Source: Candidatus Niyogibacteria bacterium
GTDB taxonomy: Bacteria; Patescibacteriota; Minisyncoccia; HO2-45-28
Reading direction: 5' to 3'
DNA: 64,000 bases
Assembly: GCA_016432485.1 (NCBI GenBank)
Contig: CP066691.1
Span: 77,466-141,465, forward strand
In this document: positions 2,370 through 51,145 of the stretch, piece by piece
How positions within the stretch are numbered: the first letter of the stretch is position 1
How the letters are laid out: every line of letters starts with the position of its first letter
Made by a program: the position numbers and the translations under genes
The notes under the pieces: generated by a model
Told to the model about the DNA's origin: nothing
The model's database searches: none
The model's input: only the letters and a program-made list of their open reading frames with translations

Positions 2370-2377
2370 ATATTTTC

Positions 2378-6288: not shown

Positions 6289-6295
6289 AAAGTTT

Positions 6296-20933: not shown

Positions 20934-22085
20934 TTATACCAATTTTTTTAACGCAATTTCCATAGCCGCTTTGCGGGGGCTGATTTTTCTTCTTATGGAC
21001 GTTTTTAAGACCAAATCCACTCCGCCACCTACTTTTTCTTTGACCAATTTAAACATTTTTTCAGCATTGTATCCTTTATATTCGGAATATGAGGATATGA
21101 CCCCGCCGGCATTGGCAATGATATCGGGCACGATTAGAACTCCCCTTCTCCAAAGTTCTTCCTCAATGTTTTCGCGCATGGGAATATTCGCGCCCTCAAC
21201 TATTATTTTGGCTTTTATTGATTTTTTATTTGTGTCGTTGATAACATCCGTAACCGACGCCGGAATTAAAATATCAATTTTTAAAGCGAAAAAACTTTTG
21301 CGTGAAATCGGACGGCCCTTTTCGCATTCTTCAAGCGATTTTCCGCAGAACTTCACTTTTTTAATGTCATTTTCATTGAGTCCCCTATCGTTATATATCG
21401 CGCCGTGCCTGTCGGCTACCGCAATTATGCGGGCTCCCATAGCGCGTAAATGTTTGAAAGCGAAACTGCCTACGTTTCCGAACCCGTCAATCGCGACCGA
21501 AGCGTCTTTTATATTCAGGCCTCTTATTTTTGCGGCAATCCGCGCGGCTTCAGCCACTCCAAATCCCGTGCTGCCCAATTCATGCGGAAGTCCGCCGAGC
21601 TCGGCCGGCTTCCCGGTAGCCGATTTTTTGTCGCGCGCGGCTTCAACGAACCAGCGCATTTCCCTTTCGCCTGTATTTATGTCCGGCCCCGCGATATATT
21701 TTGAAATTAAAAATGGTTTAATCGCCCGAGCGAAGTTTTGAACAAATTTCTTTTTTAACGCTTTTTGCCCTTTTTTGGACAAAGTCCGACTTTGTCCACT
21801 TTGTCCGGATGGAGGCCAAACGATGCCGGCTTTGGCTCCCCCAAACGGCAAACCGGCCAATGCGTTTTTAAAAGTCATGGCGCGCGCGAGCCGAAAGACC
21901 TCTTCTTCCGAAACATCCGGCGTCATTCTTACGCCTCCCTTCCCCGGTCCGAGTTTCGTATTATCTATAACCAAAAATGCCCGCATATTTATTTTCGGGT
22001 CATAAATTTTAACTACATATTCCGGACCGATATTATCTTTCTCTGTTTTCATTTGAAATAATAAGTTTTTTAAATTCTTCGACAT
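20934..22085 (-). CDS. Glu/Leu/Phe/Val dehydrogenase family protein (Leu/Val-dehydrogenase-like); carries an in-frame 9-bp tandem repeat
   Basis: GPGKGGVRM and GGAKAGIV motifs. The SGQSGQS insert is encoded by (GGACAAAGT)n at 21777-21809. Confidence 0.75.
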   Translation of the reverse strand: MSKNLKNLLFQMKTEKDNIGPEYVVKIYDPKINMRAFLVIDNTKLGPGKGGVRMTPDVSEEEVFRLARAMTFKNALAGLPFGGAKAGIVWPPSGQSGQSRTLSKKGQKALKKKFVQNFARAIKPFLISKYIAGPDINTGEREMRWFVEAARDKKSATGKPAELGGLPHELGSTGFGVAEAARIAAKIRGLNIKDASVAIDGFGNVGSFAFKHLRAMGARIIAVADRHGAIYNDRGLNENDIKKVKFCGKSLEECEKGRPISRKSFFALKIDILIPASVTDVINDTNKKSIKAKIIVEGANIPMRENIEEELWRRGVLIVPDIIANAGGVISSYSEYKGYNAEKMFKLVKEKVGGGVDLVLKTSIRRKISPRKAAMEIALKKLV

Positions 22086-22124: not shown

Positions 22125-24554
22125 TTATATTTTATGCCCGCCGAATACGGCGCGGAGCGTTGAAAGAATTTTTCCGGTAAATGACGGGCTCTTTTTTGAG
22201 CGTACACGGAAAAGATAAGACCTCTTGATAATTGGCGCGGGAACGCCGAGTTCTTTGGCGGTTTTTACCGTCCATTCTCCTTCTCCTGTTTGAGCCACCA
22301 CGCCAGACGCTTTTTTTAAGTCCTCTCCATACTTTTTGAATCCTTCCTCCAGCCACCCCGTAAGCCGCGAGGTAATAATGCTGTTTTGGTTGTACACACT
22401 CGCGACATCTTTAAGATGAAACTCAAACGGCGCCTTTTTTAATACTGAAAATCCTTCGGCCAGCGCCTGCATCATTCCGTACTCAATGCCGTTATGAATC
22501 ATTTTTGTAAAATGCCCGGCCCCAATTTTTCCCATATATCCGGAGGTCGTATCCGACATGGCGTCAAAAATCGGTTTGATTTTTTCATATATTTTTTTAT
22601 TTCCTCCCGCCATAATAGCAAATTTCCCAAGCTGAATGGAAGTCGGCCCGCCCGATACGCCAACATCAAGAAAATGAATTCCTTTTGCTCCCAATTTTAT
22701 TCCTCGGCGAACAGAGTCCTTATAGAAAGAGTTTCCTCCGTCAATTATTATATCCCCTTTCTTGAGTATCCGCGCGAGGCCTTCTTTTCCGAAAATGATT
22801 TCGTCTACGGGCTTTCCCGCGGGCCTGCCCGCCGTAGCTTTACTTTGCCCGTCCGAAGTCTTTGACGAAGGCGGGGCGGAGGCGGGAACCATAAGCCATA
22901 TAACGCGCGGAGTGGAAAGTTTCTTAACAAATTCCGGAATAGAATACGCGCCGATAATTCCATTTTTTTCAAGTTTTTTCGTAGTATCGGGAAAGTGGTC
23001 CATGCCGACAACGCGCCATCCTTTGGCTGAAAGTCGTATCGCGAGATTAGCGCCCATTTTCCCCAAACCGATAATACCGATCTCGCTCATGCGCGTTTCC
23101 GCGTTTTTATCCCTGACGCTCTGCGTATTTTGCAAGATTGCCGGCCGAGGAGTGGTCCCGGGCTTATATTTTGCGAGCGAAACGGTATTTTTATCCCACG
23201 CGCTTTCGATCGGATCGATAAATTTCCATAGCGCCGCCACCTCCCCGGGCGCTATAAAAAATGCCCGATTGCCTTCCATGGCTGCGTTGAAAATTTTTGC
23301 GTATTCTTCCACATATTGCGCCTTTTCTTTTTTTTCGTACAAAAAGAAAGAGAAGGCGCGCCTTTCAAGGGTTTGTTCAAAACCGGGTTTTTTCATCCAA
23401 AAGTAAATAATTATTTCATCATTTGGTTCAAGCCGAAAAACTATTTTATTTGGCTCGTGCGGTCCGACCTCGCAAAGATGACAAATAGCCGGATGTTTTA
23501 GCGTGAGCACTATTTCTTTACGCGCCTCGGCCATCCGTTTCCCCGCTTCCATGAATATCGGGATTCCTTTCCATCGAGGATAGCGGAGCTCGGTTTTGAG
23601 CGCAAAATATGTATCGGTGTTTGAGGCGGGACGAACTCCTTTAATATTCTCATAACCCCGATATTGCGCGCGATAGGTATTGTTTCGGACTGTTTCGGTT
23701 GTCCAGGGTGCTAAAGTTTCTAAAATTTTTGCGCGGTTTTGCCGGATAGAGTCCGCCTCTTTATTTTTAGGATATTCCATGGCAAGTACCGCAAGCATGA
23801 TTAAAAGATGATTTTGTCCGACATCGCGCAGCGCCCCGACAGCGTCGTAAAAACTCCCGCGCTCTTCCACGCCGATTGATTCATAAAGGCGAATATCAAT
23901 TCGCTCAATCATCGTATTATCCCACGCATTTTCAAAAAGGTTATTGGAAAATCTGAAATTTTCTATTCCCTGCAATATTTCTTTAAAAAGATAGTGGTCA
24001 ATTCTGTAAATCTGTTCCTCTTTGAAATATGAGGAAAGAAGCGACTGGAGCTTCCTCGCGCTTTCGGAGTCCTTTCCAAAAGGTTTTTCAATAAGCAGGC
24101 GGCTCCAGCCAAGATTTCCTCCGCAAGGAAGGTTTAATTTTACTGAGGCGAGATTCTTAAAAATTATCTCGTAAGATGACGGAGGAACGGCAAGATAAAA
24201 TAATTTATTGGCGCAAACACCCCAAGACGATTCGGCGCCCGCTATTTTTTCAAAAAGAATCCGAAAGGATTTTTTGTCCTCAAAAGTTCCGGCATGATAT
24301 GAAAATGTTTCAAAGAAACGCGAAAAATCTCTCTCTTTTATTGCCGCCCCTCCGCGCTTTATAAGGGTTTTACGGATAAATTTTTTAAATTCTTCGCGGG
24401 AAAGATTTCTTCGCGAAAATCCCATCACGGAAAAGCGGTCCGGAAAACGGCCTTGTCGGAAAAGGTGCCATAAAGAGGGAATAATTTTTTTAGCCGCAAG
24501 ATCGCCGGTCGCGCCGAATATGGTTAATATGGTCGGCGAATTTTTAATTATCAC
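22125..24554 (-). CDS. Glucose-6-phosphate dehydrogenase fused to a short-form 6-phosphogluconate dehydrogenase-like domain (zwf-gnd fusion)
   Basis: N-terminus has FGATGDLAAKK and RIDHYLFKE (G6PD). The C-terminal ~320 aa have IGLGKMGANLAIRL and the 6PGDH NAD-binding fold. One continuous ORF of 809 aa, including a ~24-aa palindromic-element insert at 22824-22886. Confidence 0.75.
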   Translation of the reverse strand: MIIKNSPTILTIFGATGDLAAKKIIPSLWHLFRQGRFPDRFSVMGFSRRNLSREEFKKFIRKTLIKRGGAAIKERDFSRFFETFSYHAGTFEDKKSFRILFEKIAGAESSWGVCANKLFYLAVPPSSYEIIFKNLASVKLNLPCGGNLGWSRLLIEKPFGKDSESARKLQSLLSSYFKEEQIYRIDHYLFKEILQGIENFRFSNNLFENAWDNTMIERIDIRLYESIGVEERGSFYDAVGALRDVGQNHLLIMLAVLAMEYPKNKEADSIRQNRAKILETLAPWTTETVRNNTYRAQYRGYENIKGVRPASNTDTYFALKTELRYPRWKGIPIFMEAGKRMAEARKEIVLTLKHPAICHLCEVGPHEPNKIVFRLEPNDEIIIYFWMKKPGFEQTLERRAFSFFLYEKKEKAQYVEEYAKIFNAAMEGNRAFFIAPGEVAALWKFIDPIESAWDKNTVSLAKYKPGTTPRPAILQNTQSVRDKNAETRMSEIGIIGLGKMGANLAIRLSAKGWRVVGMDHFPDTTKKLEKNGIIGAYSIPEFVKKLSTPRVIWLMVPASAPPSSKTSDGQSKATAGRPAGKPVDEIIFGKEGLARILKKGDIIIDGGNSFYKDSVRRGIKLGAKGIHFLDVGVSGGPTSIQLGKFAIMAGGNKKIYEKIKPIFDAMSDTTSGYMGKIGAGHFTKMIHNGIEYGMMQALAEGFSVLKKAPFEFHLKDVASVYNQNSIITSRLTGWLEEGFKKYGEDLKKASGVVAQTGEGEWTVKTAKELGVPAPIIKRSYLFRVRSKKSPSFTGKILSTLRAVFGGHKI

Positions 24555-24569
24555 GGTTTATATATTCTC

Positions 24570-25340
24570 CTAGAGATAATCCAATAAACGGTCATAATCT
24601 ATAAATTGAAAAATCTTATAACCGTAAGAAATAAGAAGGCCGATATTGCCAGAAACCAAAAGTATGCCGAGGAAAATAAGAAAGATGCCGCCGATTACGG
24701 AAACGATATTAAGATATTTAGATATATTTTGGACATAACGGGAGGCCGATCCAATGCCTGCGGCAATAAGTAAAAATGGTATCGCGAGTCCCGCCGAGAA
24801 AATAGTAAGCAATAATCCGCCCTGGAGCGCGCTGGTTGAGGTTGAGGCCAATAAGAGCACCGAGCCTAAGATCGGGCCAACGCACGGCGTCCACCCAAAC
24901 GCAAAAGCGCTGCCTAAAATGAACGAGTTGGACGCGCGCCCTCGTTTCAGCAAAGCGGGAGTCTTAATTTGAAATTCGCGCTGTAAAAAAGGCAATTTCA
25001 AAATATTGAGCATAAACAGTCCGAAGATGATAACGAAAATTCCGCCGATTCTTCCAAGCCATAATCTATAAGGAGCAAGAAACCTGGCGCCGACAAAACC
25101 GATGAGCGTTCCCATAACGATAAAAACCGCGCTAAACCCAAGCATAAAGAAAAAGCCGTTGAGAAAAATTTTCCATCGGGCCTGCTTGGCTTTAGCCGGG
25201 TCCTTGAGGTCTTCTAAAGAGGAGCCGCTGATGAAACCCAAATATCCCGGCACCAAAGGAAGGGTGCATGGGGCAAGAAATGTAAGAATGCCGGCAATAA
25301 AAGCCGGAACTATTAACGCGGCAATTGAAAGCTCAAGCAC
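24570..25340 (-). CDS. ccdA: Cytochrome c biogenesis/thiol-disulfide transporter CcdA/DsbD-family membrane protein
   Basis: TFLAPCTLPLVPGYLGFISG and a second conserved Cys (WTPCVGP). Confidence 0.75.
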   Translation of the reverse strand: MLELSIAALIVPAFIAGILTFLAPCTLPLVPGYLGFISGSSLEDLKDPAKAKQARWKIFLNGFFFMLGFSAVFIVMGTLIGFVGARFLAPYRLWLGRIGGIFVIIFGLFMLNILKLPFLQREFQIKTPALLKRGRASNSFILGSAFAFGWTPCVGPILGSVLLLASTSTSALQGGLLLTIFSAGLAIPFLLIAAGIGSASRYVQNISKYLNIVSVIGGIFLIFLGILLVSGNIGLLISYGYKIFQFIDYDRLLDYL

Positions 25341-25797
25341 GATGGTTTTTATAAAATTTTATAAGCGCTTTACGTTGAACGGGCTCTAAGTGAATCGAGG
25401 GTCTTTGTTTTTTAATAAATTTTTCTGCATTCGCCGGAGACATCCCGCGTGTTTTTATAAGATATGCCGCCATCATAGTGGGCGCTCTGCCGTGGCCGTT
25501 TTTGCAGTGCAGATATATCTTTTGCTTCATAGCGACCAAATTTTTAAGGGTCAAGACGCCGAATTCCAGTTGTTCCTGTTTGGGAGCGGTGTGGTTTTTG
25601 ACGGGAATCCACGCGTAAAAATAAGCCCCGAAAGGAGAATCAATCTTCTCTTCCTCAAGAGAAACATCGGCCATTATGCCCTTTTTCTTAAGTTCCCCGT
25701 TAAAATGCGTCTGACAGCACAAATTCGTGCCGATATAAATTCCGTCGGTGATATAGTTATATTCAAATTTAGGAGCTCCGTGTTTTTCTTTAGACAT
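25333..25797 (-). CDS. Dual-specificity/tyrosine phosphatase-like protein (HCxxGxxR)
   Basis: HCKNGHGRAPTMMAAYL catalytic loop. Confidence 0.6.
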   Translation of the reverse strand: MSKEKHGAPKFEYNYITDGIYIGTNLCCQTHFNGELKKKGIMADVSLEEEKIDSPFGAYFYAWIPVKNHTAPKQEQLEFGVLTLKNLVAMKQKIYLHCKNGHGRAPTMMAAYLIKTRGMSPANAEKFIKKQRPSIHLEPVQRKALIKFYKNHRA

Positions 25798-25821
25798 ATT
25801 TTTTACACATCTCCCGCTTTT

Positions 25822-26355
25822 TTATTTGTTAATCAGTTCTTCTATTTTACTTTTAATCTCATCCAATTTCATCGGTCCTCTCTTGTGAATAACTATGTTT
25901 TTTTCAGGGTCAACAAATATTGTTTCCGGCATTGAAAATCCGCCGATTGATTTATAAAAAGAATCAGATGGGTCGAGCAAGAAAACCAGCTGGTTGGTGG
26001 TTCCTTGCCGGTCGGTATATCCCTTTGCGACACCCAATGATTCGGCGCGGTCAATAGCGATAATCACGACTTTATCGCCAAACTCCTTTTGTGCTCTTGC
26101 GAAATCAGGAAGCTCTTCGCGGCAAAACGGACACCATGCCGCCCATGAGTTTATAACCAAAGGTTTGCCCGAAAAATCCGTGAGTCGAACGGTATTCCCG
26201 CCGTAATCCTGTAAAGCAAAATCGGGGGCTTTTTCGGATTGAGCCGTTTGAGCCGTTTGTTTTGATTCTTCGGGGGCGTTTTTCGCGCGAATTACAAGCC
26301 ATCCGACGCCCCCCAGAATCAAAAGCCCTATGATTATTGCGAATAATTTATTCAT
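25822..26355 (-). CDS. TlpA/ResA-like thiol:disulfide oxidoreductase (secreted, thioredoxin fold)
   Basis: WAAWCPFCREELP CxxC motif and an N-terminal signal/TM. Start set at MNKLFAII. Confidence 0.75.
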   Translation of the reverse strand: MNKLFAIIIGLLILGGVGWLVIRAKNAPEESKQTAQTAQSEKAPDFALQDYGGNTVRLTDFSGKPLVINSWAAWCPFCREELPDFARAQKEFGDKVVIIAIDRAESLGVAKGYTDRQGTTNQLVFLLDPSDSFYKSIGGFSMPETIFVDPEKNIVIHKRGPMKLDEIKSKIEELINK

Positions 26356-26369
26356 TTTTATTATCGCGG

Positions 26370-26531
26370 CTATTTGCAACCGCAGTCGCAATGGCCGCCT
26401 TCGTGGTGTTCGTGGCCGCAATGCTCGCATTTCTTATGCTCCACTGGATGATTGTGTTCTTTATGCTCATCACAAGGGCACTCGCAAGCCATGCATTTTT
26501 CGTGTTTTTCGTCGTGTGTATCTTCGTGCAT
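26370..26531 (-). CDS. Unannotated 53-aa Cys/His-rich putative metal-binding protein (MHEDTHDEKHEKCMACECPCDEHKEHNHPVEHKKCEHCGHEHHEGGHCDCGCK)
   Basis: Hand-translated from the minus strand; absent from the ORF track because it is under 60 aa. It has 10 Cys and 11 His in CxC/CxxC/HxxH patterns. It sits between the thioredoxin and tlpA genes on the same strand. The two plus-strand ORFs over it look spurious. Confidence 0.55.
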   Translation of the reverse strand: MHEDTHDEKHEKCMACECPCDEHKEHNHPVEHKKCEHCGHEHHEGGHCDCGCK

Positions 26532-26577
26532 ATTATTTTTTTTAATTAATTAATGATTTGTTTCGGGCAGCCCGACC

Positions 26578-26835
26578 TTATTTTGTGCCTGCCCATTCCT
26601 TTAATTCTTCATAGGGGGCCTCTCCGCAGATAAAGGCGTCAGAGTCGGTATTAATGAAAAACGGAACGCCGCCGCACCGGCCCTTATCATATTCTTTCAT
26701 CTTTTTTGCGTTTTCTTCGTTATGCCAAACTTCATATTTTTCAACTTTCAAACCGGCTTCTTTTTCCAGCCGCTCCACCAACGGCATCATCTTAATGCAG
26801 TGCGGACACTCTTTTCCGTAAAAATCTATAAGCAT
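26578..26835 (-). CDS. Thioredoxin/glutaredoxin-like protein (CPHC active site)
   Basis: FYGKECPHCIKMMP. Confidence 0.7.
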   Translation of the reverse strand: MLIDFYGKECPHCIKMMPLVERLEKEAGLKVEKYEVWHNEENAKKMKEYDKGRCGGVPFFINTDSDAFICGEAPYEELKEWAGTK

Positions 26836-26845
26836 AATTGATTTT

Positions 26846-27880
26846 TTATTTTAATAATTCTGTATCAGGGTGAGCGGCAACCCACGAAAACCAAAATGAG
26901 CCAAATGGGTTGATGCGCAGAAGCGTGCCATCAGTTTTTTTCTCGAAAATCCGCACGGCGTCAATTTCTTTTTCGTACTTCGCAATAATCGTTTTTCCCT
27001 CAAAGCTATCTTCAATTTCACCGACTTTTTTCACCGCCTCCGGCCAATATGCCTTAGCTTTTCCATTTATTACGATGCCGAGAACAAAGTCCTTATCGCT
27101 TAAGCGGTCATCTTTTTTACCAACTGGGAAATAAGTTCCCGGGGTGGTGTAGTAATCGCCGTACGGGTCCTGCCCGTAAAACCGCGTTGTTCCCGTATCT
27201 CGCGAGAGCACTTCTCCTGTCGGGTGGAGCTTCCGCCATTCGCCGAATCGAATCTGGTCTGACTGCAAAACGGCGAGATGCGTTCCGGTTTTTTCTCCGA
27301 CAATCGCTTCGCCCAAAATCTGCGACCACAATGAATCGGTTTTTCGGTCATACATTACCAAGTTTGAATTCCATAATTTACCCGAAGTGCCGAATTCCAC
27401 TCGTTCTCCCTCCACAACGGGGTCAAAAACTATTCCGGACAAGCATAGCGGGCAATAGGTTACAAGAACCCGTTTCCCATTTATGGTGTCATTTACAATC
27501 TCGTGCCAGACCAAAATTTGAAACGGATAAAAACGGCTGACATTGCCCATTTCAAGCGCAAGGCCTGGTTCGGCGTCCGATAACTGCTTCGATGCCTCAC
27601 CAACCGAAATAAATTTGGGATTATCAATGGAAGGAATCCCGTCTTTTGGCGGACCTCCGCCGAGGATAGAGTCCAGAGGAACGCTATGTTTTACGCCGTC
27701 AGTAACCATAATTTCTTTTTCTACTTCACTGCCGTTGTTTTGAATCATAATTATTTCTTTTTTAACCTCTCCACCTTGAGGCAAATTAAAGTCGTTTTTA
27801 AATATAACACGGGACAGAACAAGCGCGGCTACAACCGCAACCCCAACCACTATTATAATTGTAATTACCTTTAAATTCAT
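26846..27880 (-). CDS. DUF3179 family protein
   Basis: Conserved TYCPLC motif and an N-terminal TM. Start set at MNLKV to avoid overlap with the upstream gene. Confidence 0.55.
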   Translation of the reverse strand: MNLKVITIIIVVGVAVVAALVLSRVIFKNDFNLPQGGEVKKEIIMIQNNGSEVEKEIMVTDGVKHSVPLDSILGGGPPKDGIPSIDNPKFISVGEASKQLSDAEPGLALEMGNVSRFYPFQILVWHEIVNDTINGKRVLVTYCPLCLSGIVFDPVVEGERVEFGTSGKLWNSNLVMYDRKTDSLWSQILGEAIVGEKTGTHLAVLQSDQIRFGEWRKLHPTGEVLSRDTGTTRFYGQDPYGDYYTTPGTYFPVGKKDDRLSDKDFVLGIVINGKAKAYWPEAVKKVGEIEDSFEGKTIIAKYEKEIDAVRIFEKKTDGTLLRINPFGSFWFSWVAAHPDTELLK

Positions 27881-27884
27881 CTTT

Positions 27885-28418
27885 TTATTCAATAAGCGAG
27901 GCAACGTCTGATTCCCGAATGTCTCCGGGGATGGTGCGGACCAGATTACCGTTTATGTCTATCAAGAAATGCGTGTTGGTGTACTGAATGCCGAAAACAT
28001 TTGAGGCCCGGCTGAAAGGGTCAAGCGCTATCGGAAAATTTATTCCGCGAGATTCTATAAAATCCGCGACGGTTGACTCATTTTCGTGCAGATTAACTCC
28101 TATCACTTCCACTTTGTCTTTATATTTTTCATAAAAACGATTTAGATTCGGCATGTCTCTTCGGCAATTCGGGCACCACGAAGCCCAAAAATCAACCACC
28201 ACCGGCTTCTTGCCCCTAAACTCCGATAGCGTTATGGTTCCTCCGCCCAGCTTTTGCAGCTTAAAATCCGGCGCGGAGCTTTCTTGCAAAGCTGTTCCGG
28301 ACGCCCCCGAATGCACCGAGGCGCTTTGTGAGGCGGTATTGCCGCCATATGACCTCCCAAACGCTATCAGGCCGATTGCGGCAATAATCGCGCCTATAAT
28401 TAATATTTTGTTTCTCAT
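27885..28418 (-). CDS. TlpA-like thiol:disulfide oxidoreductase (redoxin)
   Basis: FWASWCPNCRRDMP. Confidence 0.75.
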   Translation of the reverse strand: MRNKILIIGAIIAAIGLIAFGRSYGGNTASQSASVHSGASGTALQESSAPDFKLQKLGGGTITLSEFRGKKPVVVDFWASWCPNCRRDMPNLNRFYEKYKDKVEVIGVNLHENESTVADFIESRGINFPIALDPFSRASNVFGIQYTNTHFLIDINGNLVRTIPGDIRESDVASLIE

Positions 28419-28433
28419 TTAGATTTAATAATT

Positions 28434-28745
28434 TTATTTAATAATTTGCATCAGCTGTTTGACCATGGAATTATCCTTTTTTAATTTATAACAAACCATT
28501 TGTCCCATTCTTGTTTTTTCGACCAGTTCAAGCATTTCCAGAACTCTCAACTGCTGGGATGCCGCGGATACCGTAATATCAAAAATGTTCGCCACATCGG
28601 TTACGCAAATATCGTGGTTCTCCGAAAGCAATTTGAAAATCCGAAATCTGCCAGGATCTCCCAGCGCGCCAAGAATGAGGGGCATCCGGTCCATATCGCT
28701 TGACAATTCTTTTTTTATCCTGTTTACCTGTTCTTTTGTAAGCAT
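28434..28745 (-). CDS. ArsR/SmtB-family transcriptional regulator (two-Cys type)
   Basis: wHTH VTDVANIFDITVSAASQQLRVLEMLELV. Cys in ICVTD and in C-terminal VCYK. Confidence 0.8.
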   Translation of the reverse strand: MLTKEQVNRIKKELSSDMDRMPLILGALGDPGRFRIFKLLSENHDICVTDVANIFDITVSAASQQLRVLEMLELVEKTRMGQMVCYKLKKDNSMVKQLMQIIK

Positions 28746-28803
28746 GTTAATTAAGTAATTGCATAATTACTTAATCCTACTCCCAAGAAACTTTTGTGTC
28801 AAC
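28746..28803 (-). promoter_or_regulatory. Promoter of the arsR-redoxin operon (minus strand: -35 TTGACA, 17-nt spacer, -10 TAGGAT) followed by an 11-bp inverted-repeat operator attaagtaatt-N4-aattacttaat that overlaps the start codon
   Basis: Read on the reverse complement of 28746-28803. Confidence 0.55.
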
Positions 28804-28835
28804 CCTGCCTGCCGGCAGACAGGTGTGGATAAGCC

Positions 28836-28861
28836 CCGCCACTTAAAAAGAGCGCCCGAAA
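28836..28861 (-). terminator. Rho-independent terminator after the aroE-like gene (stem agagcgc/gcgctct + T-tract on the minus strand)
   Basis: aaagagcgcccgaaaggagcgctct…, read in minus orientation, is followed by ttttaagt. Confidence 0.5.
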
Positions 28862-28877
28862 GGAGCGCTCTATAAAT

Positions 28878-29933
28878 TTAAGAACCCGCGGCTTGCTTCA
28901 TAACTTCGGCCACTTGTTCCTTGGTGATATTTTTTGCTTCCAAAACTTTTTGATTCACGAGCCAGAAGGCCTCTATTGCCTGATTCAAGACCATCGGTTT
29001 GCCGTCAAGCGTGGAAAACCCGGCCAATTTTGCCTCGCGAATGGTTGCGGTATCTTGATTGCGCAGCATTACATCCGAAATAATTGTTTCTCTATGCATA
29101 CTCTCCATAATTTGTTTTGCTTCTTTGAGATTATCGGCAATATGTTCGGGAGTTGCCGGCAACTCAATCGTTCCAAGAGCCGAATATTGGTCAAGGGGTG
29201 ATGTAGGATCATCGATTACGGAAATGACGAGGTCCGCATCGCGCACTTCATCCTGAATTAGTTCTCGTCCTCCAAACCGCGCGATATTTTTGCGGAAGTA
29301 AGTATTGACGCGCTCAGCTAAGTCCTCCGCTTTAGCCGCGGTTCTATTCAAAATCATAAGGTTGGCCCCTTCTTTAGCAAGAGCAAATGAGATTGCATTG
29401 GCAGTACCGCCGCCTCCTAAAATCACAACCTTTTTACCGCCTATTTGTTCTCCTCGCTCGCCTAATTTTTCTTTCACGCTTTGCGCATAACCAAGACCGT
29501 CTGTATTATAGCCCCTCAATATTCCGTTTTCTTCTTTAACCACAACATTTATGGCTTGCATCTCGCGCGCCAAAGGATCGACTTCGTCAATAATTTTCCA
29601 CGCGCGATCCTTAAATCCCACTCCCACGTCGCCACCAAGATACTTTCGGTCTTTTTTGAAAGAATTGAATATTACTTCAGAATTTTCCGGATCGCCGGCT
29701 AAACGAATGTTTCTGGTGTCAAAGCCGAAATGTTCATAGACGGCATTCCAAAGAAATGGCGTTCTTGCCTGGTAATCTTTATTGGCAATGCCAAGCGCAA
29801 ATTCCGGAAAATCAAGCATTTTGGGATTTTCTTTTGCATTTTCCCCGATTTTTACAATGCCCGATTCAATTAAAGTGTGCACTTGTTCCATATGTTGTTT
29901 TTCCTCCGGGTGTTCCATAGAAAATTTTATCAT
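28878..29933 (-). CDS. Shikimate/quinate dehydrogenase family protein (AroE-like)
   Basis: GYNTDGLG motif and GGGGTANAI Rossmann. Confidence 0.6.
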   Translation of the reverse strand: MIKFSMEHPEEKQHMEQVHTLIESGIVKIGENAKENPKMLDFPEFALGIANKDYQARTPFLWNAVYEHFGFDTRNIRLAGDPENSEVIFNSFKKDRKYLGGDVGVGFKDRAWKIIDEVDPLAREMQAINVVVKEENGILRGYNTDGLGYAQSVKEKLGERGEQIGGKKVVILGGGGTANAISFALAKEGANLMILNRTAAKAEDLAERVNTYFRKNIARFGGRELIQDEVRDADLVISVIDDPTSPLDQYSALGTIELPATPEHIADNLKEAKQIMESMHRETIISDVMLRNQDTATIREAKLAGFSTLDGKPMVLNQAIEAFWLVNQKVLEAKNITKEQVAEVMKQAAGS

Positions 29934-30328
29934 AGATACTCAAAATAAATAAGGCTTACCACATCATCGTCTTGAAATGGTTTTTGATAGATCCATTCCA
30001 GTTGTTTTTTGGCGCTATTTTTGTCTTGACAATCCGGCAGACAGAATTGCAAATCGCGCGTTGTCAATTTTTCTATCTTTTTAACAATAATCTTTTGAAT
30101 TCTGACTTTTTGCTGAAAGTCATCAAATATCGGCTGAATTCCCTTGTCTTCTTGTCCGGGCCGAATGATAATTCGCACTGTCGCTATCTCGCCTTCTTGC
30201 GCGCCTTTGGGTTCCGGATAAATCCTAGTCCCCGGGCGCAGCGCCACTCGAAGCGTCCTATTTTTAATGCGCTCTTTATATTGAGCGCGAAACCATAATT
30301 CATAAGGTTTTTTTCTTGCTCCCCTCAT
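29930..30328 (-). CDS. Hypothetical protein (possibly ASCH/PUA-like)
   Basis: ORF overlapping the aroE-like start by 4 nt. No firm family assignment. Confidence 0.35.
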   Translation of the reverse strand: MRGARKKPYELWFRAQYKERIKNRTLRVALRPGTRIYPEPKGAQEGEIATVRIIIRPGQEDKGIQPIFDDFQQKVRIQKIIVKKIEKLTTRDLQFCLPDCQDKNSAKKQLEWIYQKPFQDDDVVSLIYFEYL

Positions 30329-30389
30329 TTATAAAATAATATCACCATTTGAACATACATACAAATAGTGATATTTTAAAACGCGAAAA

Positions 30390-31184
30390 TCAATCCCATG
30401 CCTCTTTTTTAATCAGTTTAACGCCGGCCCCGCTCAACGCTTCTTGTGTGTCGTTCAGCATGGCTTTAAGTCCGCAGACATAAGCCGTGTATTGCTGAAT
30501 ACCGCCAACGATATCGGGAAAGTCGTTGCGAACTATAATGTCGTCTTTGTCGCGAATCACAAATCTGCCCCGGCCCCAATTCCAATCATCGTTTGCGTAT
30601 CTGGTTAGCGTCGGATAATATTTTATGTTGGGTAATCTTTTGGTAATATCCAACAATTCTTCGTGAAAGATAAGATGTTCTGTAGACCGGAAACTTCCCA
30701 ACAGCCAAACATCGGCATCCAAATTTTTGTCTTTGATGTATCTTACCATCCCGATAAACGGCGCGATACCGGTTCCTCCGCCTATAAACAAGAGTTTGCC
30801 TCCATCAATTTCCGCATCGTATAAAGTTATTTTTCCGTGCCTTACCCAATCTTTACTCGAGATCTCTATTAAATCCCTGCCGGAATCAATCTGCTGCAAT
30901 AGTTTGGAAACATGCGGTTCACGATCTTTCTCCACAATGGTTATTTCATAGAACGGCTGGGTGGGAGAGCTTGATAGAGAATAAGCGCGTATTTCCGTTT
31001 TATCGGACAAACTTTTAACCGTGCTGTCGGACTCTTCTTGAGATGCCGGCACGCGTATGTAAAGAAAGTCGCCCGGCCGATAGTCGGCTAACGCCTCGTT
31101 CTCCGGAACAAAACGAACGGCGCGCAGTTTCGGATTAAATTCAATTACTTCGGTGATTGTTGCCGGTACGACCTTAAGACCCAT
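30390..31184 (-). CDS. Ferredoxin-NADP+ reductase-like FAD/NAD(P)-binding oxidoreductase
   Basis: RAYS FAD-binding motif (EIRAYSLSS) and LLFIGGGTGIAPF NAD(P) motif. Confidence 0.7.
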   Translation of the reverse strand: MGLKVVPATITEVIEFNPKLRAVRFVPENEALADYRPGDFLYIRVPASQEESDSTVKSLSDKTEIRAYSLSSSPTQPFYEITIVEKDREPHVSKLLQQIDSGRDLIEISSKDWVRHGKITLYDAEIDGGKLLFIGGGTGIAPFIGMVRYIKDKNLDADVWLLGSFRSTEHLIFHEELLDITKRLPNIKYYPTLTRYANDDWNWGRGRFVIRDKDDIIVRNDFPDIVGGIQQYTAYVCGLKAMLNDTQEALSGAGVKLIKKEAWD

Positions 31185-31283
31185 GCTCGCCCCCCTTTTT
31201 GAAATGTCAAAAAACCACTTGAATACCTATTCAAATGATAATCCGAAAGCGAGAATTTGTCAAGCGTCTTAAAAATTTTAAAT

Positions 31284-31916
31284 TTATTTTGAAGCTCGCT
31301 CTCCAAGCGTGCCTCCGGGATGAAATTTGGCAAAATGTTCCTGCTTAAATCCTTTCATCTCCTGAAGTGCGCTTGATATCGCGTCCCCCAAGGCCGACTC
31401 AACTAGCGAGCTCGTGGTCGGAGCCAGATTAAAAGTGGTGCAGATTTTGCAGGCCTCTTCCCTGACATGGGTTAAAAGAATTATGTCCGCGAACTTCCCA
31501 AGCGCTGATTTTTCACCTGAGGTGATTGCTATAATCTTATTGCCGAATTTTTTTACAATATTCGCAAAATTAATAACCTCCGGCGTCCCGCCGCTATTAG
31601 AAATAATTATAATGACATCATCTTTCCCGAGCATGCCGAAATCGCCGTGGAGCGCCTCCACCGGATGGACGAAAAGACTGAAAGTGCCGGTGCTGGAAAG
31701 AGTGGCCGCGATTTTTCGCGCCACAATTCCGGATTTGCCTATGCCGGCAAGGACTATCTTTCCCTTCGCGCGATATAACAGCTCAACCGCTTTTACAAAA
31801 GACGAACCGAGTTTTTTCCCAACAACTTGAATCGCGCCCGACTCGTTCTTGAGGACTTCTTTCCCGATTTGTAAGACATTGATTTTGGGCTTTAATTTTA
31901 CAATTTTAGTCGGCAT
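31284..31916 (-). CDS. SIS-domain phosphosugar isomerase (KpsF/GutQ-like)
   Basis: KIVLAGIGKSGIVARKIAATL and VIIIISNSGGTPE. Confidence 0.7.
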   Translation of the reverse strand: MPTKIVKLKPKINVLQIGKEVLKNESGAIQVVGKKLGSSFVKAVELLYRAKGKIVLAGIGKSGIVARKIAATLSSTGTFSLFVHPVEALHGDFGMLGKDDVIIIISNSGGTPEVINFANIVKKFGNKIIAITSGEKSALGKFADIILLTHVREEACKICTTFNLAPTTSSLVESALGDAISSALQEMKGFKQEHFAKFHPGGTLGERASK

Positions 31917-31928
31917 ATTATTTTTTTA

Positions 31929-32441
31929 TCAAACCAGTCCCTTATTTTGCTTTAATTTATAAGTTGATATCAATATGAGAAACGCACCGATTGCGGCTAA
32001 CATAAAAGTCAGCGCAAACGGCCAATACATTAAACTTATCAGAACAAGATAAAGAGCGTAAGAAACATGGTCAATCGGCCGACGAGGAAAAATAATTTTT
32101 TTCTCAATAATCATTCTTTTCATAAGCATTACTGCGCCCCAGATTACACCCGGCAAATACAGTAAAGCAAAAATAATATATTCCGATTTTAAAAACATCA
32201 CGAAATAAACTCCGATAAAAAACGCGAGGTCGGCCACGGTATCCAACATTTTTCCCTTAACGCTTTCTACGCGCCAATGCCGAGCCAAATATCCGTCTAA
32301 ACGGTCGCCGACTGCCTGAAATATAATAAAACCCAGAAACAAACCGCTTGCTCCTATCCAAAAATAGGCCGCGGCCGGTACGGCCAATATCAACCTCGCT
32401 AAACTAATGGTGTTGGGAATATATTTTTTAACTTTGTTCAC
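31929..32441 (-). CDS. CDP-alcohol phosphatidyltransferase family protein
   Basis: GDRLDGYLAR…G…DTVAD motif. Confidence 0.7.
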   Translation of the reverse strand: MNKVKKYIPNTISLARLILAVPAAAYFWIGASGLFLGFIIFQAVGDRLDGYLARHWRVESVKGKMLDTVADLAFFIGVYFVMFLKSEYIIFALLYLPGVIWGAVMLMKRMIIEKKIIFPRRPIDHVSYALYLVLISLMYWPFALTFMLAAIGAFLILISTYKLKQNKGLV

Positions 32442-33874
32442 CGGATGTAATACAAAATCTTTAACAATTTTTTAACAAACGGCGTAAGACGGCCGGCCAT
32501 ATGTTCACTGGCGGCTTTTCGATTGATTCGAGAAGCGACAGGATAGGGATATATTTTATCAAACAGGGCGTTAATTTTCAGTCCGGCGCTGTTGGCCAAG
32601 ATTAATTCCTGGACCATTTCTCCGGCATTTTTAGCTGCCATAGTGCCGCCGAGAATTTTTTTGTCAGAAGATAAAAACAGCTTAAGCATTCCGTCCGTGG
32701 ACTCGTCCACAATCGCGCGGTCGTCGTTTTTAAAAGATTTTCTTATCGTAGAATACTTTATCCGTTTTTTGTCTAAATCTTTCTCGCTTAGCCCGAATGT
32801 TGCTATCTCCGGGTCGGTATAAGTAACCCAGGACATTTTGTCGGTTTCCAATCTTTTCTTAAATGGCGAGAAAAAGTTCTTTAAAACAAGTTTTGCGTGC
32901 AATTCCGCCGCGTGGGTAAATTGGTGTTGTCCGGCAACATCGCCCACCAAGTAAATATTTTTATTTGTGGTTTTAAGATAAGAATCAACTTTTATTTTTC
33001 CGTTATCCATTTCAACGCCGGCTTTTTCAAGATTCAGCCCCTCTGTATTTAAAGATCTGCCCATAGCGACAAGCAGAGCGTCAAATTCCAAACTGATTTC
33101 TTTGCCGGTTCCGTCTTTAATAACAATTTTATTCCTATCCACAATCTTTTCCGGCCGGCTGTTCATATAAAACCTCATACCGTCCTCAGAGAGCTGTTTA
33201 AAAATAAAATCGGAAACTTCAGGATCTTCTTTATTTAAAATTGAATCGCCCCGAACCACGACCGAAACGTCTGAACCAAGATATTTAAAGGCCTGGCCGA
33301 GTTCCATTCCAATAGGACCGCTGCCAATAACCACCATTTTTTTAGGAAAGAAATTAATGTCAAAGATTGTTTCATTGGTAAATATGTTTGACGCGTCTTT
33401 GACCCCGGGAATATCCAGCTGTTTTGGGCGCGATCCGGTGGCTATTATAATTTTTCTGGCCTCATATTCTTCTCCGCCAAGAACAACGGCATTAGAAGAA
33501 ATAAATTTAGCCAAACCCAACTTAACGGTAATCCCTTTTTTACTAAGGGCTCGAAAATTTTCATCTTCTCTGATAATGCCCTGCTTTTCTTTTATGTACG
33601 CCGTGACCTTGCCGATATCAACTGCGCCGTTTGTTTTAAGCCCGAATCTCTCAACACCCTTTCCGTTTTTTATAATTCTTGCAACATGAATAAGCGCTTT
33701 TGACGGGACACAACCAAAATTCAAGCAATCGCCGCCGATGTTTCTGTCGCTTTTATCAATTAGAAGCGTCTTGAAACCGGCTTTATTCATAAATGAAGCA
33801 ACATTAAGACCGCCTGAACCAGCGCCAATAACAATAATATCAAAGGTTTTGTTTATAAATTCCCGCACGGGCAA
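32438..33874 (-). CDS. Class I pyridine nucleotide-disulfide oxidoreductase (dihydrolipoyl dehydrogenase/MerA-like)
   Basis: IVIGAGSGG FAD motif and redox-active GGDCLNFGCVPSK. No C-terminal Cys pair. Confidence 0.75.
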   Translation of the reverse strand: MPVREFINKTFDIIVIGAGSGGLNVASFMNKAGFKTLLIDKSDRNIGGDCLNFGCVPSKALIHVARIIKNGKGVERFGLKTNGAVDIGKVTAYIKEKQGIIREDENFRALSKKGITVKLGLAKFISSNAVVLGGEEYEARKIIIATGSRPKQLDIPGVKDASNIFTNETIFDINFFPKKMVVIGSGPIGMELGQAFKYLGSDVSVVVRGDSILNKEDPEVSDFIFKQLSEDGMRFYMNSRPEKIVDRNKIVIKDGTGKEISLEFDALLVAMGRSLNTEGLNLEKAGVEMDNGKIKVDSYLKTTNKNIYLVGDVAGQHQFTHAAELHAKLVLKNFFSPFKKRLETDKMSWVTYTDPEIATFGLSEKDLDKKRIKYSTIRKSFKNDDRAIVDESTDGMLKLFLSSDKKILGGTMAAKNAGEMVQELILANSAGLKINALFDKIYPYPVASRINRKAASEHMAGRLTPFVKKLLKILYYIR

Positions 33875-33877
33875 ATT

Positions 33878-34120
33878 TTATTTTACTCCCAACAAAACAT
33901 CAACTTTTTCTTTGTCAAACCCGACAATTATTTTACCGTCTATTTCCACCGTTGGCGTGGAGAGAAGCCCGCCGTTTTTGGCAATCATTTCTTCTCTTGC
34001 TTTCGCGTCTTCGCCCACATCCTTATTTTCATACCCAAATCCTTTTTCCTGAAGATACGCCTTCAGCATTTTGCAGGAAGGACAGGTGGAAGTTGAGTAA
34101 ATAGTTATTTTGTGTTCCAT
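33878..34120 (-). CDS. Glutaredoxin-like protein (NrdH/Grx, CPSC)
   Basis: ITIYSTSTCPSCKMLK. Paralog of the gene at 37864-38100. Confidence 0.75.
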   Translation of the reverse strand: MEHKITIYSTSTCPSCKMLKAYLQEKGFGYENKDVGEDAKAREEMIAKNGGLLSTPTVEIDGKIIVGFDKEKVDVLLGVK

Positions 34121-34182
34121 AAAATTATATTGATAAGTTTTTAATTTCTAATTGTCGTTAGTTATTTCAGCTCTTCCGGCAT
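34121..34182 (-). promoter_or_regulatory. Upstream region of the glutaredoxin gene containing TAATTTCTAATTG (same 13-mer as at 15608)
   Basis: …gtttttaatttctaattgtcgttagtt…. Confidence 0.3.
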
Positions 34183-34863
34183 TTAGCTCATAGTCGCCTC
34201 TGTGCCGCCCCTGGTACCCACTCTGGCAAAATGCTTCTCCTGAAAAGCTAAGAGTTCGTCCTTGTGGTTTTTTATCAGCATGGCGTAATTCATTAAATTT
34301 CTGGCCGTAACGGCAATCATGGCTTTGGTGGCTTTGTTTTGACGGCGTTTATCCGCGTCTCCATTCATCCCGCCGCCGACTTCGCCCACCCAATACACCG
34401 CGGCTTCGGGCGGTATTACAAATCCAAGCCACTGCAAAAAATTAGACAGATTACCGACGATATGTTGCACACCATCCTCATGTCCCGTTATGACGATACC
34501 GGCCACTTTATGGTAGAGGTCTGATTTGTTGGTCATAACATACGACTCGTCAAAATGAGTCATTCGTTCTATAACGCGCTGAATCAAACTGGATTGCCCG
34601 CCCCACCAAATGGGCGTGGCAAAAATCACGATGTCCGCTTCGCGGATCGCATTAGCCAGACGGGGCCAATCGTCGCCGTCGGACATTTTTTCTAACAAGC
34701 CGACGGGTAAATTCAGATTGGCAAGACGGATTTTCTCTGTGGATATGTCATATTCGTTAAAATGCCTGAACAGGTCGTCAATCAGTTCGTCGGTATTGGA
34801 GGGTTCGTCGCCGGTTTTCAGCGTTCCCAAAAGCGCTAACGCCTTTATATTAAATTTTTTCAT
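34183..34863 (-). CDS. Flavodoxin-like NAD(P)H-dependent FMN reductase family protein
   Basis: IVIFATPIWWGGQSSL motif. Confidence 0.6.
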   Translation of the reverse strand: MKKFNIKALALLGTLKTGDEPSNTDELIDDLFRHFNEYDISTEKIRLANLNLPVGLLEKMSDGDDWPRLANAIREADIVIFATPIWWGGQSSLIQRVIERMTHFDESYVMTNKSDLYHKVAGIVITGHEDGVQHIVGNLSNFLQWLGFVIPPEAAVYWVGEVGGGMNGDADKRRQNKATKAMIAVTARNLMNYAMLIKNHKDELLAFQEKHFARVGTRGGTEATMS

Positions 34864-35289
34864 CTAGATTAATTTTTTAACCTCTTCTTCTAATTGGCCT
34901 TCGACTCCAGGACCAAGAATATTAAAAACAATGTCGCCGTTTTTATCAATTAAGTAATACGCCGGCCAATTTTCCACTTTGTACGCTTTCCAATTTTGCC
35001 TTGCGTTATCGGTAAGCACCGGAAAATCCACTTTCAAAACTTTCATTTGTTTCTTGAGGGCTTCGATGTCCCGCTCAAAAGTTGTTTCCGGAGAATGAAC
35101 ACCAAGCACTATCAACCCCCTGTCTTTGTATTTCTTTTCAATCTCCATAATGCCAGGCAAATCCTGCTGGCACCAAGAGCACATAAAAGTCCAGAATTTA
35201 ATTAAAACCACTTTGCCTTTCAGGTCGGCGAGTTTAAGCGGCTCTGAATTGAGCCATTTTTCGCCATCGGTTATAAATTCCGGCGCCCT
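34864..35289 (-). CDS. Thioredoxin-fold redoxin (AhpC/TSA/TlpA-like, CSWC)
   Basis: KFWTFMCSWCQQDLP. Start set at MRAPEF, 7 nt downstream of the merA-like stop. The longer ORF-track start would overlap merA by ~100 nt. Confidence 0.65.
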   Translation of the reverse strand, partial: RAPEFITDGEKWLNSEPLKLADLKGKVVLIKFWTFMCSWCQQDLPGIMEIEKKYKDRGLIVLGVHSPETTFERDIEALKKQMKVLKVDFPVLTDNARQNWKAYKVENWPAYYLIDKNGDIVFNILGPGVEGQLEEEVKKLI

Positions 35290-35296
35290 CATATAT

Positions 35297-36823: not shown

Positions 36824-37182
36824 ACTTTTAATCGCCCCTTAAGAATTTGCACCAAGGGAGTTTTCCTTAATTTATAATACACATTGCGGAAATCTCGACG
36901 GCGCTCCACAATGTCCGCTTTTTGTAATTTTTTAAGGGTGTGTGAGACGGCAGAAATGGAAATGCCGACCACCTCGGCAATGTCTCCGACGGACAGTTCC
37001 TTGTGCCGGCACAAAAGATAACAAATTTTCAGACGCGTCGGGTCGCCGACCATATTAAATTCCCGCGCGCAGGCAATAATGGCGTTTTTATCGTTAAGTT
37101 CCTTTTTGAGATTATTTTTATTCCTACTTGAGCTCACGTTCAAATGATAACAAAATAAATATAAAAGTACAACAAGCATCAA
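36820..37182 (-). CDS. ArsR/SmtB-family metalloregulator (CxC in alpha-helix: KICYLLC); start uncertain, may be at MVGDP (37053)
   Basis: wHTH SVGDIAEVVGISISAVSHTLKKL. Overlaps the merA-like start by 4 nt. The N-terminal 43 codons of the ORF contain promoter-like AT-rich sequence. Confidence 0.6.
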   Translation of the reverse strand: MMLVVLLYLFCYHLNVSSSRNKNNLKKELNDKNAIIACAREFNMVGDPTRLKICYLLCRHKELSVGDIAEVVGISISAVSHTLKKLQKADIVERRRDFRNVYYKLRKTPLVQILKGRLKV

Positions 37183-37249
37183 AACTTAGACCCCAATACA
37201 AAAGCCGGGCAAGCTCGGCTTTTTATAAAAATATTCTTAACCTATAGGT

Positions 37250-49630: not shown

Positions 49631-49665
<35 letters not shown>

Positions 49666-49676
49666 AGTCCCCGTCT

Positions 49677-49718
<42 letters not shown>

Positions 49719-49813
49719 GAGGCTTAACGCGTTAGCTTCGACACTCAAAGGGTCGATACTTCGAATATCTAGCCTCCATCGTTTAGGGCGCGGAGTACAA
49801 GGGTATCTACATC

Positions 49814-51042: not shown

Positions 51043-51145
<103 letters not shown>

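Follow-up and report, generated by a model that had tools for sequence, protein, structure and literature searches.

A conserved in-frame fusion of glucose-6-phosphate dehydrogenase and short-form 6-phosphogluconate dehydrogenase in Candidatus Niyogibacteria and other Patescibacteria

Introduction

The Patescibacteria (Candidate Phyla Radiation, CPR) have a minimal metabolism, and their NADPH supply and oxidant handling are poorly understood. A gene of Candidatus Niyogibacteria, located in a stretch of 64,000 nucleotides of contig CP066691.1 (assembly GCA_016432485.1, positions 77,466 to 141,465; the whole stretch is hereafter called the window), raises the question whether two oxidative pentose phosphate pathway enzymes usually encoded separately, glucose-6-phosphate dehydrogenase (zwf product, G6PD) and 6-phosphogluconate dehydrogenase (gnd product, 6PGDH), are made in these bacteria as one polypeptide. 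A preliminary description of the window had identified the gene as such a fusion. The analysis reported here supports that identification of a bacterial G6PD-6PGDH and points to a real, conserved and, judging from its sequence, almost certainly bifunctional enzyme.

One reading frame for two enzymes

The gene and its parts are located as follows:

22125..24554, minus strand: whole fused gene, 809 codons plus stop, with a GTG start and the stop at 22125-22127 (from the listing of open reading frames, ORFs)
23145..24554, minus strand: G6PD half, residues 1-470, with G6PD_N at residues 12-195 (nucleotides 23970-24521) and G6PD_C at residues 200-468 (nucleotides 23151-23957)
23088..23144, minus strand: inter-domain linker, residues 471-489 (PAILQNTQSVRDKNAETRM), 19 residues, variable in sequence, conserved in length and predicted to be disordered
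22128..23087, minus strand: short-form 6PGDH half, residues 490-809 (320 amino acids), delimited by Pfam, NCBIfam and alignment to solved short 6PGDHs

In the ORF translation FGATGDLA (residues 13-20), RIDHYLFKE (184-192) and IGLGKMGANL (495-504) share one stop-free frame, as had been described, and the frame lies on the minus strand. The GTG start is preceded by AGGAG 12 nt upstream and follows the stop codon of a CcdA/DsbD-like gene by 15 nt. Pfam recognised four domains in the product: G6PD_N (residues 12-195, 8e-55), G6PD_C (200-468, 3e-72), NAD_binding_2 (3e-42, the match being interrupted by an insertion and so in two parts) and 6PGD (680-788, 4e-17). These E-values, together with an ORF of 809 codons in DNA of 43% GC, are far beyond chance. 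No Pfam or NCBIfam match to a 6-phosphogluconolactonase (6PGL, gene pgl) was found in the protein, in agreement with the earlier statement that this step is not part of the fusion. Near the gene, Rfam at its gathering thresholds detected no regulatory RNA, and promoter-like and terminator-like sites were no commoner than in shuffled sequences.

A product identical over all 809 residues was assembled independently (Logan) from SRR12113426, SRR12113418 and SRR12113432, and the exact protein is also present in NCBI, on an 836,981-bp contig of a Candidatus Niyogibacteria metagenome-assembled genome (MAG). Because the same ORF emerges from separate read sets and from the NCBI contig, a frameshift or mis-assembly is effectively excluded, even without read mapping, and the stop or frameshift between two genes that the preliminary description had considered is absent.

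The fusion is shared by many relatives. A word-indexed search of 5.8 billion proteins listed at least 120 full-length homologues of 776-876 amino acids and 55-77% identity, all with the same four Pfam domains, so that the survey of related genomes suggested earlier gave a positive outcome. Conservation is given below over 120 of these homologues, unless stated otherwise.

Conservation of the two active sites

The G6PD half scored 447.7 bits against the zwf equivalog model TIGR00871 (cut-off 400.6), residues 7-468 being aligned to positions 2-467 of the 486 in the profile. Its motifs comprise GATGDLA (14-20), R48, EKPFG (156-160), RIDHYLFKE (184-192), H249 within DVGQNH, and K339, R345 and K346. 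In an alignment to full-length human G6PD, R48 corresponds to R72, K157 to K171, D186 to D200, H187 to H201, K191 to K205, H249 to H263, K339 to K360 and R345 to R365, and the GxxGDLA pattern is kept; human R72 (R48) is the ligand of the 2'-phosphate and human H263 (H249) is catalytic. EKPFG was found in 119 of the 120 homologues and QNH in 117, while the substrate-binding and catalytic residues K157, D186, H187, K191 and H249 are kept in 97-100%. One position departs from the canonical RIDHYLGKE, which reads RIDHYLFKE in the fused family (Gly to Phe in 110/120).

The G6PD half also carries a Cys/His motif that is specific to the fused family:

23457..23495, minus strand: H354-x3-C358-x2-C361-x4-H366 motif (HPAICHLCEVGPH) in the beta+alpha domain of G6PD

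Both cysteines of this motif were present in all 120 homologues, H366 in 119 and H354 in 113, and two further cysteines of the same half, C114 and C144, are invariant in the fused family. Neither these two cysteines nor the motif is present in zwf from outside the CPR. From its sequence pattern, the motif with C114 and C144 may be a candidate metal (zinc) or redox-switch site.

The C-terminal half was assigned to the short 6PGDHs by TIGR00872 (gnd_rel, 307.3 bits, cut-off 297.2) and by NF007161 (319.7 bits, cut-off 271). Models of sister families stayed far below their own cut-offs, with 71 bits against 291.6 for 3-hydroxyisobutyrate dehydrogenase (HIBADH) and 86 against 397 for tartronate-semialdehyde reductase (TSR); with the threonate dehydrogenase models included, scores ranged over 44-86 bits against cut-offs of 292-451. 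Of the 290 positions in the 6PGD profile, only 1-115 are matched, as expected for a short form that lacks the duplicated helical domain of the 470-residue form. The best matches of this half in the PDB were all 6PGDHs (E-values 1e-59 to 1e-53), and it aligned end to end with 6vpb, 10gw/6xeq, 4e21 and 8ihe, the last being the NAD+-dependent Gnd2.

The 6PGDH motifs are all present: GLGKMG (496-501), GGNS (606-609), GVSGGP (632-637, with SGG at 634-636), K684-MIHNGIE691-YG, GEGEWT (757-762), R783 and the tail R801...FGGH807. KMxHNGIEYGMMQ is exact in 115 of the 120 homologues and differs by single substitutions in the others, and the R...FGGH tail occurs in every listed variant. In an alignment of 75 sequences K684, N688 and E691 are invariant and H687 is kept in at least 90%; GGNS, SGG, the equivalent of R783 and the C-terminal Arg/His tail are invariant in the fused family. 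K684 and E691 are the counterparts of the general base K183 and the general acid E190 of sheep 6PGDH, and R801/H807 those of its tail residues R446/H452, which are contributed across the dimer. The possibility raised earlier of a HIBADH-like or non-catalytic C-terminal module is thus rejected, and the description of an N-terminal G6PD with a C-terminal short-form 6PGDH stands on the Pfam matches and the NCBIfam cut-offs.

Two features of the Rossmann fold of this half set the window protein apart from most of its homologues:

22992..23000, minus strand: D519-H520-F521 at the end of strand beta2, the position of the NADP-determining N-R-T
22824..22886, minus strand: low-complexity insertion in the loop that follows beta4 (~21 residues within PASAPPSSKTSDGQSKATAGR), specific to the window protein and predicted to be disordered

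At the end of beta2, 103 of the 120 homologues have N-(R/K)-(S/T), which is of the NADP type, and 16, including the window protein, have Asp. The NAD+-dependent Gnd2 (8ihe) reads ...vvyDHdPD there, like D519-H520, and on this comparison Asp519 predicts a preference for NAD+ in the 6PGDH half of the window protein. The window enzyme may accordingly be read as yielding one NADPH and one NADH per glucose 6-phosphate. The loop after beta4 has 28 residues in the window protein, the longest of the family, against 6-7 in 113/120, and a 12-nt tandem near-duplication inside the insertion encodes AGRP|AGKP. Insertions elsewhere in the family point to tolerant surface loops: in homologue P0112 each of the two Rossmann domains holds a low-complexity insert of ~30-40 residues. 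A Cys-rich N-terminal extension of ~50 residues was observed in homologue P0059.

The distance from P465, the last conserved residue of G6PD, to G496, the first Gly of the 6PGDH fingerprint, is 30-31 residues in 89/120 homologues. An AlphaFold2 model of the fused protein, calculated from the 75-sequence alignment, had a mean pLDDT (predicted local distance difference test) of 86.1, with values below 50 only in the linker (477-488) and in the insertion (563-577). Its predicted template modelling score (pTM) of 0.61 indicates that both modules are well folded but that their placement relative to each other is left undefined. The G6PD half of the model superposed on Leuconostoc mesenteroides G6PD (1dpg/1e77) with a TM score of 0.87, and no single chain spanning both halves was found in the PDB. 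In the model, each half would fold independently as a module, the two being joined by a flexible tether of ~20 residues.

Distribution and origin

The 120 or more homologues came from Niyogi-, Roizman-, Wolfe-, Uhr-, Harrison-, Magasanik-, Lipton-, Levy- and Nomurabacteria, Paceibacterota and other Patescibacteria. Full-length fused clusters, ~13 in number and reaching as low as 36-40% identity, emerged from an exhaustive HMMER scan of 1.84 billion representatives at 50% identity; those with a name are Minisyncoccia or "Patescibacteria group". The earlier remark that zwf and gnd are normally separate needs qualification, as within its own lineage the fusion is not unusual and is the common form in many Patescibacteria.

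Loci (numbered with L) were surveyed in a sample of species-representative genomes of GTDB and classified by frame-aware tblastn of each half. In-frame zwf-then-gnd fusions were found in L004 (Patescibacteria MAG), in L010 (Paceibacteria fragment) and in L005, L006 and L007. The last three carry complete fused genes of 43-49% identity on MAG contigs labelled Gammaproteobacteria (L005 and L007, 46% and 54.5% GC) or Actinomycetes (L006, 67% GC). Pfam confirmed their four-domain architecture and the G6PD tree placed them inside the fused clade; their labels would reflect either horizontal gene transfer out of Patescibacteria or mis-binning or mis-labelling. Separate but adjacent genes in the order zwf, gnd occur in Moraniibacteriota, Saccharibacteria and Gottesmanbacteria. 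The opposite order, short gnd followed by an adjacent zwf, was unfused throughout the sample (Anaerolineae, Chlorobi, Nitrosomonas, Sulfuriferula, Thermomicrobia, Methylomirabilota and others). Loci with long-form gnd are arranged as zwf-pgl-gnd (Vibrio and relatives) or, in Bacteroidota, as gnd-zwf, where zwf is usually followed by a pgl-like gene. Fusions suggested in four high-GC loci (L036, L038, L046, L052) by a test for stop-free stretches were false positives, tblastn showing separate gnd-then-zwf genes in different frames.

In a neighbour-joining tree of the G6PD half (no bootstrap) all fused sequences form one clade, beside the unfused adjacent genes of Saccharibacteria and Moraniibacteriota, and in the tree of the 6PGDH half (no bootstrap) the CPR-type sequences cluster. 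The simplest reading would be that an adjacent zwf-gnd pair was fused a single time within Patescibacteria and that the fused gene then spread. A stand-alone short gnd of 288 amino acids, 60% identical to the C-terminal half of the fusion and of the same "SIxxG(K/R)FAIMAGG" subtype, was observed in L011. It overlaps the start of a pgl-like ORF, after which comes a ROK-type kinase gene, and this gnd-pgl-glk cluster (298-2718) may represent either a pre-fusion state or a fission.

The missing lactonase

G6PD releases 6-phosphoglucono-delta-lactone, while 6PGDH acts on the acid formed by its hydrolysis. The fusion therefore does not join consecutive steps, and direct channelling without hydrolysis is therefore impossible. 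Of the proposal that the fusion channels steps 1 and 3, the presence of both enzymes in one chain stands, and a chemically direct transfer does not, since the lactone needs hydrolysis.

Among 40 scanned ORFs of the window Pfam identified no lactonase family, small or unassigned ORFs being left over at 39726-40436, 42398-43120 and 54899-56536. With the pgl-like ORF adjoining the stand-alone gnd of L011 as tblastn query, no match was obtained in the window or in the fused loci L004-L007 and L010, whereas the same query matched pgl beside unfused CPR genes (L008, L013) and in most loci from outside the CPR. The Pfam lists of six further fused loci (L084-L089) contain no lactonase either. At the loci examined, the fusion thus goes with the absence of a linked pgl. 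In lactonase-deficient organisms, spontaneous hydrolysis of the delta-lactone is known to sustain flux (Stover 2011, PMC3148214).

Gene neighbourhood

A long co-directional array of thiol and flavin redox genes has the fused gene as its distal part, and a dehydrogenase gene follows:

24570..37837, minus strand: upstream thiol/flavin redox gene array (Pfam/NCBIfam)
20934..22085, minus strand: Glu/Leu/Phe/Val-type (glutamate) dehydrogenase gene, NAD(P)-linked, 39 nt after the stop of the fusion

The array consists, in order, of FMN reductase, MerA (508 amino acids), FMN reductase, glutaredoxin, a disulfide oxidoreductase of 478 amino acids, CDP-OH transferase, a KpsF-like SIS protein, an FNR-like reductase and a shikimate-dehydrogenase-like protein, followed by ArsR, redoxin, DUF3179, a thioredoxin-like ORF (85 amino acids), a TlpA/ResA-like redoxin, DSPc phosphatase, CcdA/DsbD and then the fusion. 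On the 3' side the glutamate-type dehydrogenase, which is possibly co-transcribed with the fusion, is succeeded by seryl-tRNA synthetase.

Thiol-redox or oxidative-repair genes were found within 10 kb of the fused gene in six of the seven annotated loci. The Levybacteria locus L084 has three thioredoxins, DsbD-DUF3179, two glutaredoxins and a disulfide oxidoreductase gene ending 5 nt before the fusion, and L087 is nearly syntenic with the window (ArsR, glutaredoxin, redoxin, DUF3179, redoxin, fusion, DSPc). A disulfide oxidoreductase lies 1.6 kb downstream of the fusion in L085, MsrA and MsrB are present in L088, and L089 has a glutaredoxin and a split transketolase nearby. The Pfam list of L086 contains none of the thiol-redox genes near the fusion. 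The upstream redox array of the window is a probable consumer of the NAD(P)H of the fused enzyme.

Several members of the array deserve mention in their own right. MerA (35297-36823, minus strand) passed the equivalog model TIGR02053 (472.7 bits, cut-off 454.45) and lies in the thiol-redox island with no obvious mer operon. The 478-residue disulfide oxidoreductase (32438-33874) fits no curated equivalog. The SIS-only protein of 210 amino acids (31284-31916, minus strand) resembles the isomerase domain of KpsF/GutQ (185.9 bits, slightly below the cut-off of 203.7) without the CBS pair; its presumed substrate, ribulose 5-phosphate (Ru5P), is the product of the fused enzyme. DUF3179 (26846-27904, minus strand) was also found in L084 (4822-6483, fused to DsbD_TM) and L087 (5150-6232), and its recurrence beside redoxins, CcdA/DsbD and the fused gene suggests that it belongs to an extracytoplasmic thiol-redox pathway.

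Proposed role and alternative explanations

We consider it highly probable that the gene product is a truly bifunctional enzyme of oxidative pentose phosphate metabolism, which arose once within Patescibacteria from an adjacent zwf-gnd pair, consists of two tethered modules and serves redox metabolism. This reading builds on the observed architecture, motif conservation, distribution and synteny, and on the lack of pgl near the gene. The N-terminal half would convert glucose 6-phosphate into 6-phosphoglucono-delta-lactone with formation of NADPH, as the NADP-binding Arg is conserved. The lactone would be hydrolysed off the enzyme, spontaneously or by an unrecognised hydrolase, given that no lactonase is encoded nearby. 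The C-terminal half would oxidatively decarboxylate 6-phosphogluconate to Ru5P and release a second NAD(P)H, probably NADH in the window protein since Asp replaces the NADP-determining Asn, and predicted to be NADPH in ~86% of the homologues. The order G6PD-then-6PGDH would leave the C-terminal Arg/His tail of 6PGDH free to complete the active site of the neighbouring subunit, which may explain why no operon with gnd before zwf was seen fused. The benefit would not be true substrate channelling: a reduced genome would gain in gene economy, and the two enzymes would be co-localised and of necessity co-expressed 1:1. The role would be to feed the thiol-disulfide, flavin and mercuric reductase systems encoded nearby with reducing equivalents, with Ru5P for pentoses as by-product.

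Several points weigh against this reading. Both activities, the cofactor preference, the oligomeric logic and the physiological role are deduced from sequence. The Gly to Phe exchange in RIDHYLFKE may affect glucose 6-phosphate binding, the 6PGDH subfamily has GGP-xSIQLGKFAIM in place of the canonical GGExGAxxG(P/A)S, and the ~21-residue insertion sits in the NAD(P)-binding loop of the window protein. The origin rests on a distance tree without bootstrap support, and the fused sequences are not strictly monophyletic in the tree of the 6PGDH half. The negative result for lactonase in the window covers 64 kb of a contig of ~837 kb, so that the gene may lie elsewhere in the genome, and the association with redox genes rests on seven loci. 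Finally, linker cleavage or internal initiation at Met489 could give separate enzymes in vivo.

Four other explanations were weighed. That separate zwf and gnd genes were joined artificially, by a frameshift or a lost stop in sequencing or assembly, is scarcely credible: adjacent genes in the same order do occur in some CPR genomes, with gaps of ~55 nt between the tblastn matches (L008, L013, L014), so that a single indel could mimic a fusion, but the identical ORF was recovered from three read sets and the NCBI contig, and the homologues share the in-frame junction and its spacing. It is very unlikely, too, that the C-terminal half is another beta-hydroxyacid dehydrogenase (HIBADH, TSR) or a non-catalytic NAD(P)-binding module. 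The 6PGDH-specific cut-offs are passed while those of HIBADH, TSR and threonate dehydrogenase are missed by far, the best PDB matches are all 6PGDHs, and the base/acid motif K-M-x-H-N-G-I-E-Y-G and the Arg/His tail are kept; these observations stand against a Rossmann domain (NAD_binding_2) common to the superfamily, weak matches to the other models, the departure from the canonical motif after SGG and the insertion in the cofactor loop.

A polyprotein-like precursor, giving two separate enzymes through cleavage of the linker or re-initiation at Met489, would fit the predicted disorder of the linker and the position of this Met directly before the 6PGDH domain. We regard it as improbable, given that Met at position 489 is not conserved in the homologues, that neither a protease site nor an internal ribosome binding site was identified, and that the conserved linker length suggests a functional tether; the retention of the fusion across deep CPR lineages also argues that the fused state itself is selected. 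There is similarly little likelihood of a true metabolon, in which the fused enzyme would itself perform or speed lactone hydrolysis and channel the intermediate. Such an activity would explain the missing pgl, which was not found beside any of the 11 fused loci examined, yet is found beside most unfused ones, and the family-specific substitution in RIDHYLFKE near the glucose 6-phosphate site and the Cys/His motif could be seen in the same light. Against it speak the lack of a hydrolase-like domain or motif, a linker of only ~20 disordered residues, an inter-domain orientation that the model does not predict with confidence, and the sufficiency of spontaneous delta-lactone hydrolysis in lactonase-deficient organisms. 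The bifunctional enzyme on a flexible tether is therefore preferred. A more far-reaching combination of the data, doubtful as it stands, would make the fusion a redox-gated NAD(P)H generator: the Cys/His motif with C114 and C144 would act as a thiol/disulfide or zinc switch by which the enzyme is turned on under oxidative stress, the enzyme would be functionally wired to the adjacent glutaredoxin, thioredoxin, DsbD and disulfide reductase genes, and the fusion would have rendered a dedicated lactonase dispensable.

Further features of the window

The 16S rRNA gene (49012-51088, minus strand) is 2077 nt long, exceeding its model of 1533 positions by ~540 nt, and is interrupted at 49874-50189 by a group I intron (Rfam RF00028, 54.5 bits); group I introns in 16S rRNA are a known CPR hallmark. 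A LAGLIDADG_1 homing-endonuclease ORF (48209-48799, minus strand) lies ~210 nt downstream of the 3' end of the 16S gene and not inside it, and the window yielded no 23S rRNA. An N6/N4 DNA methylase (771 amino acids), an AAA_15/AAA_21 ATPase (549) and a ResIII helicase-like protein (897) are encoded at 2327-8989 (plus strand), probably as a restriction-modification or defence module. Near the rRNA gene, a protein of 805 amino acids with HerA/TrwB/T4SS-coupling-protein-like ATPase domains (52063-54480, minus strand) may be a mobile-element remnant or a DNA-uptake component.

Comparison with known enzymes and significance

Bifunctional enzymes that join G6PD to another oxidative pentose phosphate enzyme, as the window protein does, are known as G6PD::6PGL from Plasmodium (GluPho), Giardia, Trichomonas and metazoans (H6PD), and have been read as securing NADPH for defence against oxidative stress. 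Their partner is the lactonase of step 2, so that a real coupling of consecutive steps is possible in them, whereas the partner in the window protein is the 6PGDH of step 3 and no Glucosamine_iso (6PGL) domain was found in it by Pfam or NCBIfam. H6PD (8em2) matches only the G6PD half. Compared with canonical Zwf (TIGR00871; 1dpg and the cyanobacterial-type 9emm), this half has the same fold (the TM score given above), motifs and catalytic His/Asp dyad, but differs in RIDHYLFKE, in four extra invariant Cys and two His, and in the second enzyme as C-terminal extension. The C-terminal half shares full-length alignment, catalytic motifs and the FGGH tail with the stand-alone short 6PGDHs (TIGR00872; 6vpb, 10gw/6xeq, 4e21, 8ihe), from which it differs by its junction to G6PD, by the absence of their inserts of 20-30 residues and by its own loop insertion.

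The one published report of a fusion of G6PD with 6PGD concerns a diatom, Phaeodactylum tricornutum (protein 54663 / XP_002183714; Kroth 2008, PMC2173943). It was reported as confined to this one species and said in 2011 to have no counterpart in nr, and a later JGI annotation cast doubt on its legitimacy (Stover 2011, PMC3148214). Like the window protein, it has both enzymes in one frame, a short spacer (39 nt in the diatom) and no lactonase domain, and skips step 2; it is named G6PD/6PGD, the same order as in the window protein, this order being known from the name alone. In contrast to this eukaryotic case, the bacterial family is large, deeply conserved and built with a short-form 6PGDH of ~320 amino acids. 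Natural fusions in the pathway were said in 2024 to involve only enzymes 1 and 2 (PMC10909971), and a Patescibacteria paper of 2026 lists G6PD and 6PGL as NADPH source and mentions no fusion. Our full-text literature search found no description of a bacterial or CPR G6PD-6PGDH fusion. The sequences themselves are already public, auto-annotated and under-annotated, and the conceptual novelty is modest, as two well-known enzymes are fused and there is a eukaryotic precedent.

Database labels for the fused proteins name either G6PD only or 6PGDH only, and with such one-sided annotation a pathway reconstruction can report gnd or zwf as absent by mistake. Cofactor regeneration is a possible use for a compact G6PD-6PGDH of natural origin. 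The features that merit experiments are the loss of linked pgl, the synteny of the redox island and the Cys/His motif. For the organisms themselves, the finding means that many Patescibacteria carry one fused gene for both NAD(P)H-yielding steps of the pathway, usually beside thiol-redox genes. Should the more far-reaching reading with redox gating and a dispensable lactonase hold true, it would amount to a self-contained, lactonase-free oxidative pentose phosphate module unique to ultra-small bacteria.

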